A stretch of 64,000 nt of DNA from Clostridia bacterium (lineage in GTDB: Bacteria; Bacillota; Clostridia; Oscillospirales; Acutalibacteraceae), in assembly GCA_017520705.1 (NCBI GenBank), contig JAFXFF010000044.1, positions 60,108-124,107 on the forward strand, written 5' to 3'. Both the position numbers and the translations under genes were made by a program. The first letter of the stretch is position 1. Each line of letters opens with the position of its first letter. Positions 54,247 to 64,000 of this stretch are shown here, in pieces. The notes beneath the pieces are model-generated. The model did no database searches, was not told the origin of the DNA, and saw nothing but the letters and a program-made list of their open reading frames with translations.

Positions 54247-55643
54247 AGGCGCGGTGGGAACACCCGGCGGCCATTCCCGGGCATATCCCCTACTATTACC
54301 TGCTTTTGTTATTGCCCCTATTGCGTGGGGTACGGTATGTTCGCCTGCCCAACGGATTTCCCCGTTGGTTGCGAGGCACTTGGTTTGACGAGGCAGTCAT
54401 CGCCTCTCTGCTGGTGCTTTCCGCCGTGGCGTGGAGCAAGCGCACCTACGACGTAAACGAGCACCGTCTGCGGCTGTGCCGCGGCATCTTTTGGCAACGC
54501 ACCACCCGCATCCCCCTGCGATGGGTGACCACCCTGACGGTGGAGCGCCCCCTATGGCTGAGGCTGTTGCGGGCGGCACGGGTCAGTGCTGACACCGACG
54601 GCGGAAACCACCGTCTGGCAGACGTGCGGCTGACGGTGTGGCGGCGGCAGGCGGCACTGTTTTTGCCCGATTCGGAGCGCGGGGTGTATCTCCGTGCCAA
54701 GACGTGGCGCATGGTGCTGCTGAGTCTGCTCTCCTCCGACTCTTTCGGTGGGGTGCTGCTGCTGACGGCGGCGGTGCGGCAAAGCAGTGTTCTGCTGGGC
54801 GAAAGCATCCGGAATACCGTCATGGATAACTTAGAGGCGGCGGCGGACGCCATGGCGGCCATCCCCCGTACCGCCGCCCTGCTCATCCTCGTCCTCGCCG
54901 TCGGATGGCTGACGGGAACGGTGCGGCACCTGCTGAGGCATCTGCCCTTTGCCCTCTGCCGCCGGGAGGACACCCTGACGGTGTATATGGGTACCATCAC
55001 CAAGCGCATCCACTGCTGTGCGGTGGGGGCGGTGAACTATATCGATATTCGCCAGACGTTGGCGGCGCATATCCTGCGGCTGTACACCGTGTACATCAAC
55101 TGCACCGGCTACGGCAAGGATAAAAACACCCTGGCGGTGGTGATCCCACCCTGCCGCCGATTCCGAGAGGAATGGCAATTGCTGTTTCCCCATTTGCGGC
55201 CCTGCACCGTCACCCTACGACCCGCCAAGAGGGCATGGCTGCGGTATCTGCGATTGCCGCTGCTCCTGCTCCTGCTGTTGCCCATTGCCGGGCAGGCGGC
55301 GGGATGGGCATTCCCTGTTTGGCGGGAATTGGCGGTGTATCTGTCCATTTTAGCGGTGCTCCCCTGCCTATGGCTGGGGGCGGTGCGTATGGTAGCCTAC
55401 CACGTGACGGGTGTGGGATACCAAGAGGGGCAATACAGCCTATGCTATGCCCATCGGCTGACCCTACACCGGGTAACGGTGCCCGCCGAAAAGGTGGCGG
55501 CGGTGCACATCCGTAGGTCCCTATGGCAACGCCGACGGGGCGTGTGCGATCTATGGGTCTACAGCCATCACGAATTCCGCCGCCCCCACAAGGTGCGGCA
55601 TCTAAAATACGACGAAGTGAAACAACTGCTAAAGGAAGTGTGA
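54243..55643 (+). CDS. YdbT-like membrane protein with repeated bPH_2 domains
   Basis: Three TM/PH-domain repeats; Arg/Trp-rich. The track ORF 53697.. carries a spurious N-terminal extension. Confidence 0.6.
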   Translation: MKARWEHPAAIPGHIPYYYLLLLLPLLRGVRYVRLPNGFPRWLRGTWFDEAVIASLLVLSAVAWSKRTYDVNEHRLRLCRGIFWQRTTRIPLRWVTTLTVERPLWLRLLRAARVSADTDGGNHRLADVRLTVWRRQAALFLPDSERGVYLRAKTWRMVLLSLLSSDSFGGVLLLTAAVRQSSVLLGESIRNTVMDNLEAAADAMAAIPRTAALLILVLAVGWLTGTVRHLLRHLPFALCRREDTLTVYMGTITKRIHCCAVGAVNYIDIRQTLAAHILRLYTVYINCTGYGKDKNTLAVVIPPCRRFREEWQLLFPHLRPCTVTLRPAKRAWLRYLRLPLLLLLLLPIAGQAAGWAFPVWRELAVYLSILAVLPCLWLGAVRMVAYHVTGVGYQEGQYSLCYAHRLTLHRVTVPAEKVAAVHIRRSLWQRRRGVCDLWVYSHHEFRRPHKVRHLKYDEVKQLLKEV

Positions 55644-55647
55644 AACG

Positions 55648-56457
55648 ATGGAAACCATCCGCACCGATGAACTGGTGGCCCGCCAACTGGAGGTGGACCT
55701 CGCCACCGCCGCCGCCCTCATTATGGAGGGACGCATCTGGATCGGCAACGTGCCCGCAGAGAAGCCCGGCTCTCCCCTGCCCGCCGACACGGTAGTGACC
55801 TGCCGCGAGAAGGCGAAAAAATACGCCAGCCGCTCCGGTTACAAGCTGGAGAAGGCGTTGGCGCATTTCGGCATCGACCCCGCCCACCGCATTGTGTGCG
55901 ACATCGGCGCCAGCAACGGCGGCTTCACCGATTGCCTGCTGCAAAACGGCGCACAGCGGGTGTTTGCGGTGGACGTGGCGTACGGTATCTTGGACTATAA
56001 GCTGCGCATTGACGAGCGGGTGACCGTTTTGGAGCGCACCAACGCCCGCAACCTCACCCTGGAGCAGTTGGGCGGCACCGTCTGCGATATGGTGACGGTG
56101 GACGTGTCCTTTATCTCCCTCAAGAAGATCTATCCCGCCATCCATCGGGTGCTCAAAGAGGGCGGCGAGGTGGTGACGCTGATCAAGCCCCAGTTTGAGG
56201 CCAAGCAGAAGGAGCTGGGCAAAAACGGCATTCTCCGCGACCCTGCGGCGACACTGCCGCCTCTGATGGCGGAGCTGTTCCAGTCGGCGGCGGAGAACGG
56301 GCTGACGGTGCTGGGGCTGACGGTATCCCCCATCCACGGCACCAACGGCAACGTGGAGTATCTGGCCCACTATCGGCACACCGCACCCTCTGAAGAGGAG
56401 ATGGCGGCCTATCCTGACACGGTAGAGGCTGTGATGGGGTTACAGCCGGACGTGTGA
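55648..56457 (+). CDS. tlyA: TlyA family rRNA 2'-O-methyltransferase
   Basis: S4 domain N-terminus + FtsJ fold (VCDIGASNGGFTDCLL; DVSFISL). Confidence 0.85.
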   Translation: METIRTDELVARQLEVDLATAAALIMEGRIWIGNVPAEKPGSPLPADTVVTCREKAKKYASRSGYKLEKALAHFGIDPAHRIVCDIGASNGGFTDCLLQNGAQRVFAVDVAYGILDYKLRIDERVTVLERTNARNLTLEQLGGTVCDMVTVDVSFISLKKIYPAIHRVLKEGGEVVTLIKPQFEAKQKELGKNGILRDPAATLPPLMAELFQSAAENGLTVLGLTVSPIHGTNGNVEYLAHYRHTAPSEEEMAAYPDTVEAVMGLQPDV

Positions 56458-56536
56458 GTCCCTTCCATCACCACCGAAAAAAGAATGTTCTAAACAAGCC
56501 TAAAAGAGCCTCGGCGTCTGCCGAGGCTCTTTTGAA

Positions 56537-58432
56537 TTATTTCCGTTTGTTTTTTCGAAGAACCAGCAGAAGGATAACTAACGCAAGAATCACTGTCACC
56601 GCAACAGCTACCGCAACCACCATACCGGTACGGTCGTTCCCCCGATTCGTCCCGCCAACCTCTTTCTCAGTTGTTTCGAGAGGGGGGGACATAGCGATTG
56701 CGTCGGTTTGAGTGGGTATCATTTCGCCCTCTGTTACCGTAGAAGAAGGCACAGATACGGTCGTCGAAATCGTCGTAGAGAACTTAGCCGTCGTAGTGGT
56801 AGTCGTGGATTTGATGGTAGACTGTTTAGAAGCGGTCGGTTTCGCAGCGCGGTAGTTATACGTCCAATCGGCTTCCAGAAAAGACTCATTATTCTTCGTA
56901 AACGCAAAGATATCTTTTCGTTGCGTTTGGCTACCCGCATAGTACACCTTTGCCAGCGCGGTACACCCCTCAAACACACCCGCATACAAAAGGCGAAGAG
57001 AAGCAGGAATCACAATCGACGTCATGCGAATACAACCGGAAAAAGCGCCTTCGCTGATCGCATCTACCCCATCCGGGACAACGACTTGCGTCAGCGAGGT
57101 ACAGTCCTGAAATAAATTGCCGGCAATGGATGTGAGTCGATCACTTAAGGTAACTTGATTCAATTGCGTGCACCCTTTAAAACAGGAGGAGCCGATAGAG
57201 GTAACGCTGTTGGGGATGGTGATTGAAGCGAGTGCGGCGCAGTTGGCAAAAGCCTCGGTTCCAATGCTTGTGACACCATCGGGAATGATGACCGAGGTGA
57301 GCCCGGAACAATTCACAAACGTTCTCCACGCGATAGTGGTAACCTTCCTCGGGATGGTAACGGAGGCGAGCGAAGTACAATTGGCAAAAGCCCCCTCATA
57401 GATGGTGGTGACGCTGTCCGGGATACTCAGCGAAGTCAAAGCGGAACAACCGGAAAAGGCGGCGCTACCAATATCGGTGACGCCCTCGCTAATGGCAACA
57501 TCGGACAAAGAGGCACACCCCATAAAGCAACGAGAACCAATACAGACAACGCTACCGGGAATCGTCACCGAGGTCAGAGAAGAACAATCCTGAAACGCTC
57601 TGTCCCCTATATAGGTAACACCTTTGCCAAACACGACCGAAGACAACCGTCCACATTCCAAAAAAGATTCATCTCCGACTCGACTCACACTGTCAGGAAA
57701 CGTGACAGAGGACAAAGACGCACAACCCAGAAACGCTTCGTCCGTTATGGTGGTAACCCCCTCCCCGATGGTGACGGAGGTCAGCGCTTTACAACGTGAA
57801 AACGTCAACCAACCGATGGTTTTCACACTGCCGGGGATAGTAACCGAGGTCAACCCATCACGACCCTGGAACGCCCTCTCCGCAATGGATAGCGTACCCT
57901 CTTTGATGTTGACAGCTCCGGAGACGGAGGTCGCTACAGAAATCAAGTGGCGTCCCATATACACAACATCCTCGCCGTAATTCTCCACATAGGCGGTTTT
58001 GCCAAATGCGTCGCGCCCAATGGTTATGGCGTGGTCGGGAAGGGTGATAGAGGCCAAATTGCTACAGCCGATGAAGGCGCCCTCTCCAATGGCGGTGACA
58101 CTATCAGGGATGGTAATTGAGGTCAGGCCGGTACAACCAATAAACGTGTTGCTGGTAATGGTGGTAACGGTGTTGGGGATGGTGATCGAAGTGATTTCGG
58201 TTTGACCATAAAAGGCTTGATTACAAATCTCGGTGACCGGATAGCCTTCGATGGTAGCAGGAATGACCACATCACCGGACATACCATCCTTACAGCCTCG
58301 AATCGACACCTGCTCCTGGTAAATGATATAGCTTAGTCCTTGAGGGGTTACATCCACGGCAAAAACGCTTACGGGAAACAGGGTCAGCGCAAACAATAAC
58401 GTCAAAAATACAGACGCATACTTTTTCTTCAT
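56537..58432 (-). CDS. BspA-type leucine-rich repeat (LRR_5) surface protein with C-terminal TM anchor
   Basis: About 17 repeats of …LTSVTIP.SV..IG..AF..C..L…; Thr-rich stalk; TM + RKNKRK. Confidence 0.75.
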   Translation of the reverse strand: MKKKYASVFLTLLFALTLFPVSVFAVDVTPQGLSYIIYQEQVSIRGCKDGMSGDVVIPATIEGYPVTEICNQAFYGQTEITSITIPNTVTTITSNTFIGCTGLTSITIPDSVTAIGEGAFIGCSNLASITLPDHAITIGRDAFGKTAYVENYGEDVVYMGRHLISVATSVSGAVNIKEGTLSIAERAFQGRDGLTSVTIPGSVKTIGWLTFSRCKALTSVTIGEGVTTITDEAFLGCASLSSVTFPDSVSRVGDESFLECGRLSSVVFGKGVTYIGDRAFQDCSSLTSVTIPGSVVCIGSRCFMGCASLSDVAISEGVTDIGSAAFSGCSALTSLSIPDSVTTIYEGAFANCTSLASVTIPRKVTTIAWRTFVNCSGLTSVIIPDGVTSIGTEAFANCAALASITIPNSVTSIGSSCFKGCTQLNQVTLSDRLTSIAGNLFQDCTSLTQVVVPDGVDAISEGAFSGCIRMTSIVIPASLRLLYAGVFEGCTALAKVYYAGSQTQRKDIFAFTKNNESFLEADWTYNYRAAKPTASKQSTIKSTTTTTTAKFSTTISTTVSVPSSTVTEGEMIPTQTDAIAMSPPLETTEKEVGGTNRGNDRTGMVVAVAVAVTVILALVILLLVLRKNKRK

Positions 58433-58465
58433 CTTATATCCTCCTAAAGCCGCCAAAAAACCGGG

Positions 58466-61400
58466 TTATCCTTCTGCGGCGGCGGTGATGACGCGCTGTA
58501 CCAAATCAGACTCCTCTTGTGTCAGCCAAATCAGTTTGCCGTCATCCCGCAGAAGCGCAGTGTGATCCGAAGTGACGTAATACGTGTGTTTCCCCAGATT
58601 GATCGCTCCCTCAAACAGAAAAGCGCGATTGACAGAGGTGGCATCTACCCACCGGTTCTCTTTATCCCACTGCTCCCACAACAGCCACAGTTCCTCCATA
58701 TCCTCATCATCTCGAAGGAATTTGCGCCATCTCTCAACCGCTTTGTCGGGATACTCGGTAAGCTGATTAAAGACGGCGGCATAGTAATTCTCGGGAATGG
58801 TTGCCCTCACGTACGATTCCATATGAGTGACAAACACCAAATCCACCTTTGCGATGCCCGAAAATAACCACCAGTTGGCGATACCGGTATCCCCTACAGC
58901 GGGGGTATATACATCCAAGCCCACACGAAGCTTTGAGTCTTCGTAAGTGTAAGAAACCACGTACGGGGTGTCGGAACCGCTAACGGTCGTGTAACAGGTT
59001 AGAAGAACCGCATTATCTGCGAAGAATGCATCGTTAAAGCAGTCGAAATCGCTGATCTTCCACCGCTCTGCCGTTCCCGCTTTTTGATAGTACGTGAGGA
59101 ACTCCACCAATGCGGCGCGATTATTGAACCGCTTGATCGACGCAGTTCCAAAAATCATCTCCCGCTCTTCTTCGCTGATGCCCGTCTCCACCGTATGGGT
59201 GATCCCCACGTCCACAGTGTGGGTGTACAAGATGAAAGAACTGCCGTCTGCTCCTACCAAAAGCATCCGATTGGCACCGGTGGTCGTATTCTTCTGATAT
59301 ACGCAGGCCATATTGCCCAAGAGGTTGATCTCCGGTCGCAAAGAGGTATAATCATACGTCGTTCCCATCACGTAGGGAATGGGAACACCGATGGCCTTAC
59401 CCTTATAATCCGTAAACATTAAGGAGGCGCCGCTGCCGTGATTATCCGTGACCAATCGCACCGTGTAATCGTTCAACCGCTCTCCGGGCGAGCCCGAAGA
59501 GAGGATTTCCTCACCGGTTTGGATATTGTAGAATCGGTGTTGTTTATAGACGTATGCGCTGAAATAATCGTTGTGAAGAGAGTTATCCTCCGCCGAGGAA
59601 TACCATTCCAACTCCCAACCCAAATCCACTTCTTCCATCTTAGGGGAATCCGTACGATAATCGACGGTATACGTTCCGGTGAACGTTTGGTAAGTGAGAT
59701 CGTTGGAACTGGAGGGGATATCGGAGCCGGTATAGCCATAGCTTTCCATCTTCAGATAGCATTTCCCTCGGTTAAAACCATATATCGTGATATAGGCTCC
59801 GCCACCGACGGTGCCCATAGTCAATTGCTGACGCTGACTGCCATCCGTTCGGTATATAAACAACTTTTCTCTATTTACAGACATATGCTTTTTCACGCTG
59901 AAGATCCATGCGCCCGCAATATCGAAAGATAACACGTCGTCGTCGCCGTCTATCAAACGGACATCACTGCCATCGTCACGGCAGGAATACAGATTGTGTC
60001 CCTTCAAGTAAAAAATTCTGCCATCCTTTACCCGCAAATTGGAACAGCCCAAAAAGTCCGTAATCTTTTTTAGGGCATTGGGAGCAGACGGGTCCTTAAC
60101 GGTCAAATCTCGACGATACAAGACCTTTTCGTTGGGCTGTACAAAATAGTAATAATTCCCGTCCACACAGGTGGCAATATCCGTTGAGGGCGCCGTTAAC
60201 GAAGGAGTAGACGGCTTCGTGGTGGGGGTGGTGGGCTTGGTGGTGCCGGTGGTGGGATCGGAGGGCTCGTCGTCGGGGCCGCCCATCAGATCCGCATCCG
60301 CCCACTTTCGATCGATGGCGTAAATGGCGGTGCCGTCATACCAACCGTCGTAATAGATCGTGGCGGAATAGCCCACAGCCGGAGCACTGCCCGGAAGCAA
60401 AATGCCGGTGTACACCTTCACCCGCGGACCCAATTTCGAGTCGCTATCGGTGACTTCCAGCACGAGATAGCCGCCTTCTTTGCTCCACTCCACCACCGTG
60501 CCGGTGACCGAGGCGGCGATGGCGTCCTCGCCGGGGTTGCCCTCGCACAGATAGTAATCCAACTGTTCGCTCTCTTCGGCGGTCAGATCGGCGATCTGCT
60601 CGCCATTGTAGAGCTGCTTTTTGTCGGGACTGAGGTAATAGTTCTTTGCGCCGTCGAAGGAGAAATTGGCGATGGCGGCAAAACCGGTATCCACCCCACC
60701 TTCTGCGCTATACCATTCCAGACCCTCCACCAAAGGCAGTAGGGTTTCACGGCTATCCTCGGAGAGGCTGTAATAACCGATGAATGCAACGTCCTCGTCA
60801 CCACCTACGGTGATGGGGTGGCTGTAAGTTGCCCAGTAATTTTCCGTGGGGATGCGATAACGAATCACCGCACGATAGGCGGTGGCGCCCTTGATCTCGG
60901 CGAGAGGCACCTCCGCCAGCATAAACCAATGACCGGTGGCAAAATCCACGTGGGAGGGTTCGTAAACGTCCACCTGAACGGTGACCAACTCGGTGCCGTT
61001 GTACATCACGGCGGCAATCTTAGGCTTCAACGAACCGCTGCTGTCCCGATGATATACGGCAAGCAACATCCTATCTGTAAAGAAAGCGTCGTCGTAACCG
61101 CTCACCAGTTCGGCCTTGCTCTCGATAATGTAATCGTCAAGAAATGCATCCAGCTCAGCTCGGGAAGTAATGGGGATAATGGGGCGGTCTTTATCGCTGT
61201 AATTACCGGTGCGATATTGGTACTGATTATACAACGTATTGCGCTGTTCCTCCGTCATCTGCACCTGCCCTGCGGCAAAGGTAACGGGAGCCGTAAAAGA
61301 CACGGCGTGAATTTTGTCCTTGCGCTCAAACACAGCGCCGTCTTTCAGCGTATAGTCGCCAAAGGACATCTGCTCATAGCTCATCAGAGAGCCACCTTTA

Positions 61401-62758
61401 CCGATACGTAAGGTCAGGCCGGTCAGATCGCCGTCAAACAACAAGGTCATGGCGTCGTCAGGGAAGGTCATGGTGACGGTATCCTCCCCCATCTCATAGG
61501 TGCCCTCCAACAGCATGGCGGAGGACAACGCGCTGTTGGTATAAGTACAACGGTTACCGCCGATCTCCAACGTTACCTGTGCGTAGGGCTGCTGGACATG
61601 GGTAAACACCGCATACTGCGGCTCGGCGTCGGGATCGTCATCCGTATCGGTGACGGCGGGTTTATCCGTATCATCCGACTTAGGGTCGGTGAGCAGGCAG
61701 ACGCCGGCCACGGTGGACACCAGCAGAGCGGCGACGATGATCCAGATGGTGGGTTTCTTATAAGACAGTACCGACTTGACGCGGCTCTTGACTGACGTCT
61801 CGCCAAAGGCGAGAGGACAGGCGGACACCAGGCGGCGGGGGGCACTGCAGGCCAGCAGCGCCTCGGAATACGCCTTGCGGTCGGCGGCGGGCATATCCCG
61901 CACCACCCGCTCGTCGCAGGCGGCCTCGATATCGCGGCAAAGGAAGATATAGGCCACCCACATCAAAGGGTTAAACCAATACACCGTCAGCAGCACAAAG
62001 CCCAGAGGCTTCCACCAATGGTCGCGGCGGTGGAGGTGGGCCTGCTCATGGGCCACCACGCTGGCTCGGGCGGTGGCATTTAAGTCAGAGGGCAGGTAGA
62101 TGCGAGGGCGGAACACACCCAGGATAAAGGGGCTGCGCAGATGATCGCACTGCCACAGATTATCCGACAGATGAGCCGCCTCCCCCACCTGACGGCGCAA
62201 GCGGAGGGTGGTGAACACGGCATAGGCCGCCAGCAGCACGATACCCGCCAGCCACACGTAGGTGGCGACGGTGAGAGCAATCTGCCACGGGTCAACGCTT
62301 GCCTCGGTGGTAGCGGTAGATACCGACGCATCGGGGGTGGGGGTCACCACGGGAGCATCCGCCACGGGAGGCGTCACCACGGGGGTATCCGTCGCGGGAG
62401 GTATCACCACGGGAGGTGTCACCACGGGGGTGTCCGTCACGGGAGGCGTCACCACGGGGGTGTCCGTCACGGGAGGCGTCACCACTGGGGTATCGGGGGC
62501 GCTATTCTCAACGGGCGGCGTATCGGGAGCGGGAGCCGGCGCCGGAACGGACACCGCGGGGGTGTCGGGCATCAGGCTCAGGCTGCTCTCGATGGTGAAG
62601 GGGCACAGCAGACGCACCGCCACCAGCGCCCACAAAAGAACGTGGATCCAACGGGGTGCCTTATGAAACACCAAACGGAGCAGCAACACAGCCACCACCA
62701 GGATACCGGCGGTGAGGCTCATATTCAGCAAATGCAGAAAGACGTTCTCCATAATCAC
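58466..62758 (-). CDS. M56-family (BlaR1/MecR1-like) signal-transducing metalloprotease fused to a ~1000-aa uncharacterised extracellular region
   Basis: BlaR1-type N-terminus; HEQAHLHRRD zinc motif; P/T/V-rich 10-aa repeat insert between TM1 and TM2 (30-bp DNA tandem repeats ~62300-62520); large C-terminal ectodomain without PBP motifs. Start overlaps the blaI stop. Confidence 0.75.
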   Translation of the reverse strand: MIMENVFLHLLNMSLTAGILVVAVLLLRLVFHKAPRWIHVLLWALVAVRLLCPFTIESSLSLMPDTPAVSVPAPAPAPDTPPVENSAPDTPVVTPPVTDTPVVTPPVTDTPVVTPPVVIPPATDTPVVTPPVADAPVVTPTPDASVSTATTEASVDPWQIALTVATYVWLAGIVLLAAYAVFTTLRLRRQVGEAAHLSDNLWQCDHLRSPFILGVFRPRIYLPSDLNATARASVVAHEQAHLHRRDHWWKPLGFVLLTVYWFNPLMWVAYIFLCRDIEAACDERVVRDMPAADRKAYSEALLACSAPRRLVSACPLAFGETSVKSRVKSVLSYKKPTIWIIVAALLVSTVAGVCLLTDPKSDDTDKPAVTDTDDDPDAEPQYAVFTHVQQPYAQVTLEIGGNRCTYTNSALSSAMLLEGTYEMGEDTVTMTFPDDAMTLLFDGDLTGLTLRIGKGGSLMSYEQMSFGDYTLKDGAVFERKDKIHAVSFTAPVTFAAGQVQMTEEQRNTLYNQYQYRTGNYSDKDRPIIPITSRAELDAFLDDYIIESKAELVSGYDDAFFTDRMLLAVYHRDSSGSLKPKIAAVMYNGTELVTVQVDVYEPSHVDFATGHWFMLAEVPLAEIKGATAYRAVIRYRIPTENYWATYSHPITVGGDEDVAFIGYYSLSEDSRETLLPLVEGLEWYSAEGGVDTGFAAIANFSFDGAKNYYLSPDKKQLYNGEQIADLTAEESEQLDYYLCEGNPGEDAIAASVTGTVVEWSKEGGYLVLEVTDSDSKLGPRVKVYTGILLPGSAPAVGYSATIYYDGWYDGTAIYAIDRKWADADLMGGPDDEPSDPTTGTTKPTTPTTKPSTPSLTAPSTDIATCVDGNYYYFVQPNEKVLYRRDLTVKDPSAPNALKKITDFLGCSNLRVKDGRIFYLKGHNLYSCRDDGSDVRLIDGDDDVLSFDIAGAWIFSVKKHMSVNREKLFIYRTDGSQRQQLTMGTVGGGAYITIYGFNRGKCYLKMESYGYTGSDIPSSSNDLTYQTFTGTYTVDYRTDSPKMEEVDLGWELEWYSSAEDNSLHNDYFSAYVYKQHRFYNIQTGEEILSSGSPGERLNDYTVRLVTDNHGSGASLMFTDYKGKAIGVPIPYVMGTTYDYTSLRPEINLLGNMACVYQKNTTTGANRMLLVGADGSSFILYTHTVDVGITHTVETGISEEEREMIFGTASIKRFNNRAALVEFLTYYQKAGTAERWKISDFDCFNDAFFADNAVLLTCYTTVSGSDTPYVVSYTYEDSKLRVGLDVYTPAVGDTGIANWWLFSGIAKVDLVFVTHMESYVRATIPENYYAAVFNQLTEYPDKAVERWRKFLRDDEDMEELWLLWEQWDKENRWVDATSVNRAFLFEGAINLGKHTYYVTSDHTALLRDDGKLIWLTQEESDLVQRVITAAAEG

Positions 62759-63108
62759 ACCTCCTCGATGAGGCGGCGAATCTCTGCCACCTCGTCCTCG
62801 GTCAGGGGTTTACAGGCGGCAAAGGCCGCCAAAAAGGCGGGCAACGAGCCGCCGAAGGATTCCTCCACGAACTGCTGGCTGCGGCGGGCGTAAAACTCGT
62901 CGCGGGAGATGAGTGCGGTCACCTGTCCCCCTTCGTTGCGGAACAGGCCACGGTCCGACAGCCGCTTCAGCACGGTATAGGTGGTGGTGCGCTTCCATTC
63001 CAGCTCGGCCTCGCACAGCTGCACCAAGCGCTGGGTGGAAAGGGGCTGGTTGGCCCAGATGATGTCCGCAAAGCGGGACTCCACCACGCCTAAGCTCAAT
63101 TCGTTCAT
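62755..63108 (-). CDS. blaI: BlaI/MecI/CopY family transcriptional repressor
   Basis: MNELSLGVVESRFADIIWANQPLSTQRLVQL…TTYTVLKRLSDRG winged helix. Confidence 0.85.
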   Translation of the reverse strand: MNELSLGVVESRFADIIWANQPLSTQRLVQLCEAELEWKRTTTYTVLKRLSDRGLFRNEGGQVTALISRDEFYARRSQQFVEESFGGSLPAFLAAFAACKPLTEDEVAEIRRLIEEV

Positions 63109-63252
63109 ATAAAGCACCTCTCTCTCGTCATGTCTACACCTTGTCGACAATTTAAGTCTACACGACGTAGACAAATTTGTCAAGGGGGTTGCGGAAATTT
63201 TTTGAAAAAGATAAAAAAGCCGAGCAACGGCAAGCGTTGCTCGGCTTTTCGA

Positions 63253-64000
63253 TTAAGGCTTGGTGATGGTAACAGCGGTGATACGAGGCGGCAGTGAGGG
63301 CATCACCATGTCCTCGTAGGTGACTACGTATTCCTCCCCTACCAGAGGGTCCAGCTCGATATCCCCCAGATTGACCCACACGCCCTGAATAAACTGATCC
63401 ACATCGTAGCTCTCCATCAGCATAGAGCGGCCCTCCACCCGTGTTACCTTACCGGTGAAGGAAAGTTCGGTGTCCTTATGGATGACAGAAGCATCGGAGG
63501 TTTTCTCCACATAGGATTCCAACACGGTGACACCCTCCATATCCGACTTGGCAATGCCGGAGAAGAGCAGCCACTGGGTAAGGACGGTATCGCCCGACGC
63601 AGACGCATCCACGCCCAGGCGCACCGAGAGGCAGGTGCCCTCCTCGGTATAGACGTAGGACGCCACCTGAGGCGCGGGCAGGTCGATGCCGGCCTTATAA
63701 TAAGTCATAATAAGCGAATTCTTCTCGAAGAAGGCCTCGTCAAACTGCGTGAAGGTAGCCTGCTTCAGATCGGTCCAGGGGGAATCCATCATATGCTGGG
63801 ACAAAAGCACGTCCAGCTGAGGACGGGAAGTGAACACCTTGACCGGCAGGTAGTAGGGCTTGTCCGAGGCAGTGGCGTCGGTGGTGTCGGACGAGTTGTT
63901 GGGCACGTAGCCGAACATCTTGCGAATCTCGTCCTCGCTCATCCAGTTGTAGCTCTTAATGGTAAGCGTATCCCCCACCAAAGCCGTCGCGCCGCGGACA
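63253..64000 (-). CDS. Partial gene (N-terminus outside window) encoding a domain paralogous to part of the M56 protein's ectodomain
   Basis: …DEAFFEKNSLIMTYYK…TQWLLFSGIAKSDMEGVTVLESYV… versus …DAFFADNAVLLTCYTT…ANWWLFSGIAKVDLVFVTHMESYV… in the 58466..62758 product. Reading frame stays open to the window edge. Confidence 0.45.
   Translation of the reverse strand, partial: VRGATALVGDTLTIKSYNWMSEDEIRKMFGYVPNNSSDTTDATASDKPYYLPVKVFTSRPQLDVLLSQHMMDSPWTDLKQATFTQFDEAFFEKNSLIMTYYKAGIDLPAPQVASYVYTEEGTCLSVRLGVDASASGDTVLTQWLLFSGIAKSDMEGVTVLESYVEKTSDASVIHKDTELSFTGKVTRVEGRSMLMESYDVDQFIQGVWVNLGDIELDPLVGEEYVVTYEDMVMPSLPPRITAVTITKP

Follow-up and report, generated by a model that had tools for sequence, protein, structure and literature searches.

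In Staphylococcus aureus, the BlaR1/BlaI and MecR1/MecI systems each join a repressor to an adjacent M56 zinc protease that has four transmembrane (TM) helices and an acyl-serine penicillin-binding sensor, and the repressors MecI and BlaI are cleaved at N101-F102 (PMC9834060). A survey of about 15,000 M56 proteins (Kurtz et al. 2026; PMC13492132) found a transpeptidase domain in about 6% and a nearby BlaI gene for 96%, the commonest architecture having an unannotated C-terminal region, and systems that lack the sensor have been investigated in C. difficile, in mycobacteria and in P. aeruginosa (bioRxiv 10.64898/2026.08.03.742534). Here we analysed a stretch of 64,000 nucleotides (hereafter, the window) from a Clostridia bacterium (assembly GCA_017520705.1, contig JAFXFF010000044.1, positions 60,108 to 124,107), in which a blaI-type repressor gene stands directly before a gene for an M56 protease with an external region of about 1070 amino acids (aa). 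On balance, this locus probably encodes a non-canonical regulated-proteolysis module of the BlaI/BlaR1 family that would be autoregulated, would respond to an input other than a beta-lactam and, in this lineage, would be linked to a leucine-rich-repeat (LRR) surface protein.

The locus shares with BlaR1/BlaI and MecR1/MecI the adjacent repressor and four-TM M56 zinc protease, the HExxH motif with downstream Glu/Asp, a repressor collinear with MecI that has Phe at the aligned P1' position, TACA/TGTA dyads over the promoter, and an extracellular TM2-TM3 loop. In contrast to those systems, a region of seven cassettes takes the place of the penicillin-binding sensor, no beta-lactamase or PBP2a gene lies nearby (the gene that is probably co-transcribed encodes the LRR protein), and the NCBIfam equivalog thresholds (NF000326 / NF033109) are not reached. 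The atypical BlaIR systems (CenIR, mycobacterial BlaIR and PvmSR) have in common with it that an M56 protein without a transpeptidase domain is combined with a BlaI-like repressor and that the input is presumed not to be a beta-lactam. However, the external regions of the atypical systems are short, often unstructured, or absent, whereas here more than 1000 aa are confidently folded, and neither cassette exchange nor an orphan paralog consisting of TM4 plus an ectodomain has been described for them. The protein fits the commonest group of the InterPro survey, that of M56 followed by a C-terminal region without an identifiable domain.

A widespread class of non-beta-lactam M56/BlaI systems has thus been published (PMC13492132), and the locus belongs to this known class. 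The original prediction, which described an uncharacterised anti-repressor system sensing something other than beta-lactams, therefore holds as to the missing penicillin-binding signal, with the sensing still putative, but not as to the novelty of the general class. New here are the size and mosaic composition of the external region, its cassette exchange, the orphan TM4-anchored paralog, a variable repeat in the equivalent of extracellular loop 1 (EL1) of BlaR1, and an LRR gene in the operon.

Repressor and protease core

Searches with the protease core yielded 235 confirmed relatives in species-representative genomes, and the locus comparisons below cover the best 80 of these, which are metagenome-assembled genomes (MAGs) of Oscillospiraceae, Acutalibacteraceae and Lachnospiraceae from animal guts. 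In nearly all 80 loci, the M56 gene is directly preceded by blaI. The repressor is intact and adjoins the protease gene as originally described: residues 6-116 of its 117 match Penicillinase_R (PF03965; 77.7 bits against a cut-off of 22.6, E 1e-21), and it is collinear with residues 12-121 of MecI (1okr; E 1e-6). An Ala-Phe pair (FLAA|FA) aligns with the scissile bond N101-F102 of MecI/BlaI, with Phe at P1'. At this position Ala is found in 82 of 82 related clostridial repressors and Phe in 81 of 82, and the bond is a candidate cleavage site.

Residues of the M56 protein are numbered here from the GTG at 62758, that is, from the start of the 1430-aa open reading frame (ORF). Pfam Peptidase_M56 (PF05569) spans residues 9-329 (157 bits versus 31, E 6e-46), HEQAHLHRRD occupies residues 237-246, and H237, E238, H241, E278 and D282 are nearly invariant in 22 homologues. 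The core without the repeat described below aligned weakly to the BlaR1 structure (8exs/8exp; E 0.17). Neither the full N-terminal region with the repeat, nor a profile of full-length homologues at E 0.01, matched any sequence of the Protein Data Bank (PDB). By hydropathy, helices were placed at residues 5-35, 37-58, 158-187 and 335-359, and their cytoplasmic ends are bordered by basic residues; the predicted topology thus has four TM helices, with the protease in the cytoplasm between TM3 and TM4. The Pfam match, the alignment and the hydropathy profile together bear out the view that the BlaR1-like N-terminal TM segment, the zinc site and the following TM segment are intact. Forty residues after E278, the stretch ACPLAFGET is nearly invariant in the same 22 homologues, and its spacing and invariance make it (PLA317|F318) a candidate counterpart of the autocleavage loop of BlaR1.

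A mosaic external region

Using iterative profile searches among 40 homologous clusters to set the borders, we divided the external region into seven cassettes in the order A-B-C-D-linker-E-B-C (Table 1). A Pfam search of residues ~375-1430 in seven segments, with E values up to 10, gave a single chance-level match and no transpeptidase; NCBIfam at E 0.01 matched the protease region and nothing in the ectodomain; and the matches listed for any search include no penicillin-binding or beta-lactamase fold. For A-D, the AlphaFold model reached a mean predicted local distance difference test (pLDDT) score of 82, and its comparison with the PDB by Foldseek returned nothing meaningful (E at least 0.009, TM-score at most 0.14). 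The second B and C copies (B2-C2) scored mostly 82-95 per 10-residue block, and the first half of E 70-85. The domain annotation and structure prediction that had been proposed were thus carried out with the modules delimited and no penicillin-binding protein (PBP) fold found, in agreement with the earlier view that the sensor is not a penicillin-binding domain; the predicted Thr/Pro linker is likewise present. The ectodomain had also been called novel, and this is only partly so: it is unannotated, but D appears to resemble YobA/DUF3221 proteins, E appears to resemble DUF5050 proteins, and B is a widespread extracellular domain.

When 5.8 billion proteins were searched with the ectodomain, 40 clusters were obtained, 39 of them with an M56 domain, and B, C and D recur in many orders among these homologues. 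A profile search of 1.84 billion representatives recovered 1457 proteins at E up to 1e-3, most of which matched B only, often in several copies. Among 87 sampled proteins, a dockerin was present in 15, M56 in three and DUF5050 in three, the last three being probably remote relatives of module E. Module B itself (P0056-P0181) occurs in more than 1,400 clusters at 50% identity, often with two to six copies per protein, and shows the recurring motif YD..FF....L........SGS...P...T.D.A.W; there is no Pfam model for it, and the dockerin found beside it in the 15 sampled proteins is of type I. Assignment of B to a PrcB_C-type domain was considered and rejected, as Pfam gave no match of this type for 19 members (E up to 5) or for 87 remote members (E up to 0.01).

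Module D appears to resemble the oligonucleotide/oligosaccharide-binding (OB) fold of the YobA/DUF3221 lipoproteins (4qy7). Module E, of which the first ~150 residues are modelled confidently, is likened to the DUF5050 proteins (PF16472; 3s25, EUBREC_1955), although it has no PF16472 match itself and stands in a membrane protease, whereas those are found in a lipoprotein setting. Close relatives of E are rare: beyond this protein and a 92% variant, the close search found only P0041, a free-standing lipoprotein of 430 aa (L004:8001-9293, Clostridia MAG GCA_017442345.1) whose E module is 51% identical. P0041 consists of a signal peptide with a Cys lipobox, a Thr/Pro/Ser-rich linker and E, and is encoded at an unrelated locus between rpmB and an M50 peptidase gene. 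The combination of linker and E in P0041 suggests that the M56 gene acquired E and its linker as one piece.

Probable exchange of cassettes at a fixed locus

Of the relatives, a Clostridia MAG from goat caecum (89%) and one of the Acutalibacteraceae (81%) are the closest, and the host is apparently a ruminant-gut Oscillospirales bacterium of the Acutalibacteraceae. Complete M56 ORFs in the relatives vary in length between ~525 and 1319 aa, and their protease cores are similar. At syntenic loci the cassettes follow one another as A-B-C-D-E-B-C in the window, B-C-D-C-D-D in L006 and B-C-D-B-C-D in L007. The 92% variant, P0002, shares residues 1-477 at 81% identity and residues 851-1428 at 92%, with a different middle section; shared flanks around a different middle indicate a recent cassette swap. 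From these comparisons of sequence, the ectodomain appears to evolve by cassette exchange at a fixed locus.

The G+C content is 0.64 in the M56 domain, 0.48 in module E and 0.48-0.51 over E, B2-C2 and the LRR gene, against a window average of 0.56. The low-G+C block (56537-60187) comprises the LRR gene and the 3' third of the M56 gene with E, B2 and C2; the P0002 lineage has it, and L006 and L007 lack it. These observations are consistent with acquisition of the block as one unit. In P0032, an M56 homologue of 925 aa, a BspA-type LRR_5 region is fused to the protein's own ectodomain; the LRR region is a separate gene here, and it thus seems to be part of the same exchangeable pool of modules.

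Promoter and operator sites

The best promoter match within 56000-64000, TTGACA/TAGACT (10/12), lies before blaI. A BlaI operator with TACA/TGTA repeats, which had been proposed as a thing to look for upstream of 63108, was found in the form of two dyads of the type GTCTACA-N3-TGTAGAC, which contain TACA/TGTA and cover the -10 element and the leader (Table 1). The strict motif was present in 37 of 81 related loci, compared with 21 of 1620 control windows. The position of dyad 1 is conserved in L006-L025, 32 loci have two sites (24-27 bp apart in 31 of them), and in 35 related loci TTGACA lies at most 16 nt upstream of the first dyad. Some loci (L009, L011, L019, L022 and L041, among others) keep the TTGACA/two-dyad layout with changed half-sites (GTCTAT...ATAGAC, GTTTA...TAAAC), and such altered half-sites may insulate paralogous blaI-M56 systems from each other. 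L062 and L078 each contain two divergently arranged blaI-M56 pairs.

A variable repeat between TM2 and TM3

The distance from TM2 to HExxH is 183 aa; across the family the median is 137 and the largest value 187, and the TM2-TM3 loop is ~46 aa longer than the median. Tandem Repeats Finder (TRF) reported a 30-bp period at 62408..62491 (2.8 copies, 96% matches), and further degenerate units extend from 62343. The repeat that had been noticed is therefore real, but it was wrongly placed between TM1 and TM2; it covers residues ~89-140, and with the helices assigned by hydropathy it lies between TM2 and TM3. Its suspected length variability was borne out: L001, L002 and L003, from three independent assemblies, have exactly one 30-bp unit fewer than this DNA, with otherwise identical flanks. 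The copy number of the repeat varies, with collapse during short-read assembly as the remaining, still conceivable, alternative source of the difference.

Organization of the operon and neighbouring genes

The coordinates of all features are collected in Table 1. Judging from the sequence, blaI, the M56 gene and the LRR gene form one minus-strand unit from promoter to terminator. The 1430-aa ORF of the original prediction exists (58466..62758, minus strand), but the likely start is the ATG at 62752, which stands 7 nt after GAGGAGG and agrees with database homologues, which begin MENVF; it gives 1428 aa. Since this ATG lies two nt past the blaI stop, the two genes abut and do not overlap as had been thought. 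A gap of 33 nt with a ribosome-binding site (RBS) separates the M56 stop from the LRR gene, and no terminator was found between the two. No Rfam family was detected in 55000-64000, and the window contains no second M56/BlaI pair and no additional B, C, D or E modules elsewhere.

Table 1. Positions of genes, signals, protein modules and repeats at the blaI-M56 locus, in window coordinates
Feature	Position	Strand	Remarks
BlaI-family repressor gene	62755..63108	minus	117 aa
M56 metalloprotease gene	58466..62752	minus	1428 aa from ATG 62752 (1430 aa from GTG 62758)
BspA-type LRR surface protein gene	56537..58432	minus	631 aa from ATG 58432
Orphan paralog gene, 3' part	63253..64000	minus	full gene 519 aa, read from L001:7941-9500
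Sigma-70-type operon promoter	63155..63183	minus	-35 TTGACA 63178-63183, 17-nt spacer, -10 TAGACT 63155-63160
Operator dyad 1, GTCTACgTCGTGTAGAC	63156..63172	.	overlaps -10; one mismatch to GTCTACANNNTGTAGAC
Operator dyad 2, GTCgACAAGGTGTAGAC	63132..63148	.	24 bp downstream of dyad 1, before RBS
Intrinsic terminator after orphan paralog gene	63214..63250	minus	16-bp stem, 8 GC pairs, then T-run
Bidirectional intrinsic terminator closing operon	56502..56533	both	14-15-bp stem, T-runs on each strand
TM2-TM3 extracellular loop (residues 59-157), Pro/Thr/Val-rich, expanded equivalent of BlaR1 EL1	62288..62584	minus	by hydropathy
30-bp variable-number tandem repeat, unit DTPVVTPPVT	62343..62491	minus	by TRF
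Zinc-protease active site, H237-E238-x-x-H241 and E278-x-x-x-D282	61913..62050	minus	aligned to BlaR1 8exs/8exp residues 183-267
TM4 (residues 335-359)	61682..61756	minus	conserved SYKKPxxW motif just before
Module A (residues 378-500), small all-beta domain	61259..61627	minus	
Module B, copy 1 (residues 501-637)	60848..61258	minus	without Pfam match
Module C, copy 1 (residues 638-745)	60524..60847	minus	
Module D (residues 746-828), putative OB-like barrel	60275..60523	minus	
Thr/Pro-rich linker (residues 829-857)	60188..60274	minus	by sequence
Module E (residues 858-1190), putative divergent DUF5050-type beta-propeller	59189..60187	minus	G+C 0.48
Module B, copy 2 (residues 1191-1322)	58793..59188	minus	AF2 pLDDT 82-95
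Module C, copy 2 (residues 1323-1430)	58469..58792	minus	

The flanking BspA-like LRR protein was correctly recognized: it matches LRR_5 (PF13306) in four stretches (385 bits versus 27.7, E 7e-117) and, by its sequence, has a signal peptide, four LRR_5 regions, a Thr-rich stalk and a C-terminal TM anchor. Its likely start, ATG 58432, follows AGGAGG, and the gene is probably co-transcribed with blaI-M56. It also follows the M56 orthologue at the P0002 locus (88% identity).

On the other side of blaI, the orphan paralog gene is set apart from the blaI promoter by its terminator, and no operator was found for it. The similarity between its product and the M56 protein (WLFSGIAK...MESYV) proved genuine, with 35% identity over 163 aa (E 3e-15) and a second internal copy (E 8e-8). 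The protein starts with a TM4-like anchor, which is followed by a module of unknown type, a B module that matches both B copies in the M56 protein, and a short D-type module. Over 32 aa the N-terminus shares 53% identity with M56 residues 330-361, which comprise TM4 and SYKKPxxW, and no Pfam family matched the protein. The L007 orthologue can be aligned to it collinearly (46% identity), and among the 80 species-genome loci scanned an orphan occurs only in L006 and L007, the closest relatives. The paralog had been suggested to be secreted or accessory. With its TM4-like anchor it is a putative type-II membrane protein, anchored rather than secreted, and it is retained as a lineage-specific accessory.

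Beyond the end of the window, L001 shows that a 213-aa protein (L001:7236-7877), also found in L007 and with a weak phosphoribosyltransferase match only (E 0.033), is encoded directly upstream of the orphan paralog. A tandem glycine riboswitch (L001:6893-7054, minus strand; two RF00504 aptamers of 56 and 48 bits) precedes a Na+/alanine symporter gene two genes beyond the orphan.

Proposed mechanism and alternative explanations

In the regulated-proteolysis module proposed here, a BlaI-like dimer resting on the two dyads would silence its own operon. An extracellular ligand would engage the mosaic ectodomain, the signal would be passed across the membrane in the manner of BlaR1, and the repressor would then be cut by the zinc protease at the conserved Ala-Phe bond; the derepressed operon would give more sensor and, in this lineage, more of the LRR adhesin-like protein. 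Judged by the predicted propeller, OB and barrel folds and by the proteins in which the modules occur elsewhere, the ligand may be a macromolecule, for example a protein, a glycan or a surface. Several points weigh against this reading. The ligand, the cleavage of the repressor and the regulon are all inferred, as are the coupling across the membrane and the control of the LRR gene, the core parts being read from the sequence. The residue aligned with P1 is Ala, not Asn as in MecI/BlaI; a search of the 64-kb window and of the 24-kb locus L001 gave no operator copies beyond the two at the promoter; module E is poorly modelled in its second half (pLDDT <50); and the LRR gene is absent in L006 and L007, the nearest species-level relatives, and thus is not a conserved output. 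Furthermore, no inducing signal has been found for CenIR of C. difficile (PMC13492132), and it is thus unproven that such proteins receive their input through the external region. A more far-reaching version, which we hold to be unlikely as a whole, makes the locus a contact sensor with an exchangeable input end: cassettes (A, B, C, D, E and LRR) from a pool common to lipoproteins and dockerin proteins would be joined by recombination to an unchanging M56/BlaI core at one chromosomal site, retuning the macromolecule or surface that is sensed; the orphan would be a co-sensor or decoy, inserting into or pairing with the M56 membrane domain; the TM2-TM3 repeat would adjust the coupling; and the output would be the LRR adhesin.

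The ectodomain might instead be a displayed surface adhesin or scaffold, with the M56 domain chiefly an anchor, the repressor setting the level, and diversifying pressure from phage, host or competitors driving the shuffling and the repeats. Such a role would fit the spread of module B through more than 1,400 clusters and into 15 dockerin proteins of the 87 sampled, the free-standing lipoprotein with module E, the LRR fusion of P0032, the cassettes swapped between close relatives, the Pro/Thr linkers and variable-number repeat, and the lower G+C of the 3' part of the M56 gene. However, the protease site and the cleavage-site Phe of the repressor are strongly conserved family-wide, which is not expected of a mere anchor, and the blaI-M56 pairing is nearly universal in the 80 sampled loci; we allow this explanation a minor, though appreciable, chance. 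Alternatively, the system could signal in response to the state of the membrane or cell envelope, as is suspected of BlaR homologues that lack a sensor, the external modules being accessory; atypical BlaR proteins function even when their external domain is short or missing (CenIR, PMC13492132; PvmSR, bioRxiv 10.64898/2026.08.03.742534), and M56 proteins of very different length keep a similar protease core. Yet more than 1000 aa of folded modules have been kept on TM4 across several lineages, which suggests that they contribute to function, and the input of BlaR1 is its external domain and EL1 (PMC9834060), so this too appears improbable. That the protein is a canonical beta-lactam sensor whose penicillin-binding domain has diverged beyond recognition has next to no likelihood: the weak NCBIfam matches to blaR1_generic (63.9 against 400) and MecR1 (30.1 against 1200) cover the protease region alone (residues 201-356) and fall far short of the equivalog scores, no ectodomain segment matched a transpeptidase, and the Pfam records of the genes within 10 kb (L001) include neither a beta-lactamase nor a transpeptidase family. 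The fall in G+C from the M56 domain to module E and the mosaic architecture could also be signs of an assembly chimera or a decaying pseudogene. Nevertheless, an identical 1418-aa protein is found in three independent assemblies, in one of them on a 172-kb contig, and two further samples contain the E-B-C end and the LRR gene again, within a second architecture of the P0002 type; both recurrences argue against a chimera, a possibility that the original prediction had itself raised. The reading frame is moreover open over 4.3 kb and its modules fold confidently, and we consider a chimera or pseudogene very improbable.

Significance

BlaR1-type proteins are usually read as antibiotic sensors, and the present locus is a well-delimited example without a PBP domain. 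Its external region is large and foldable, its operator is clear, and candidates are at hand for both the cleavage bond and the output gene; the natural cassette-swap variants can be used to look for the input. Two unannotated families of extracellular domains, B and C, have been marked out in the course of this study, and of these B is widespread in gut Firmicutes, including dockerin proteins.

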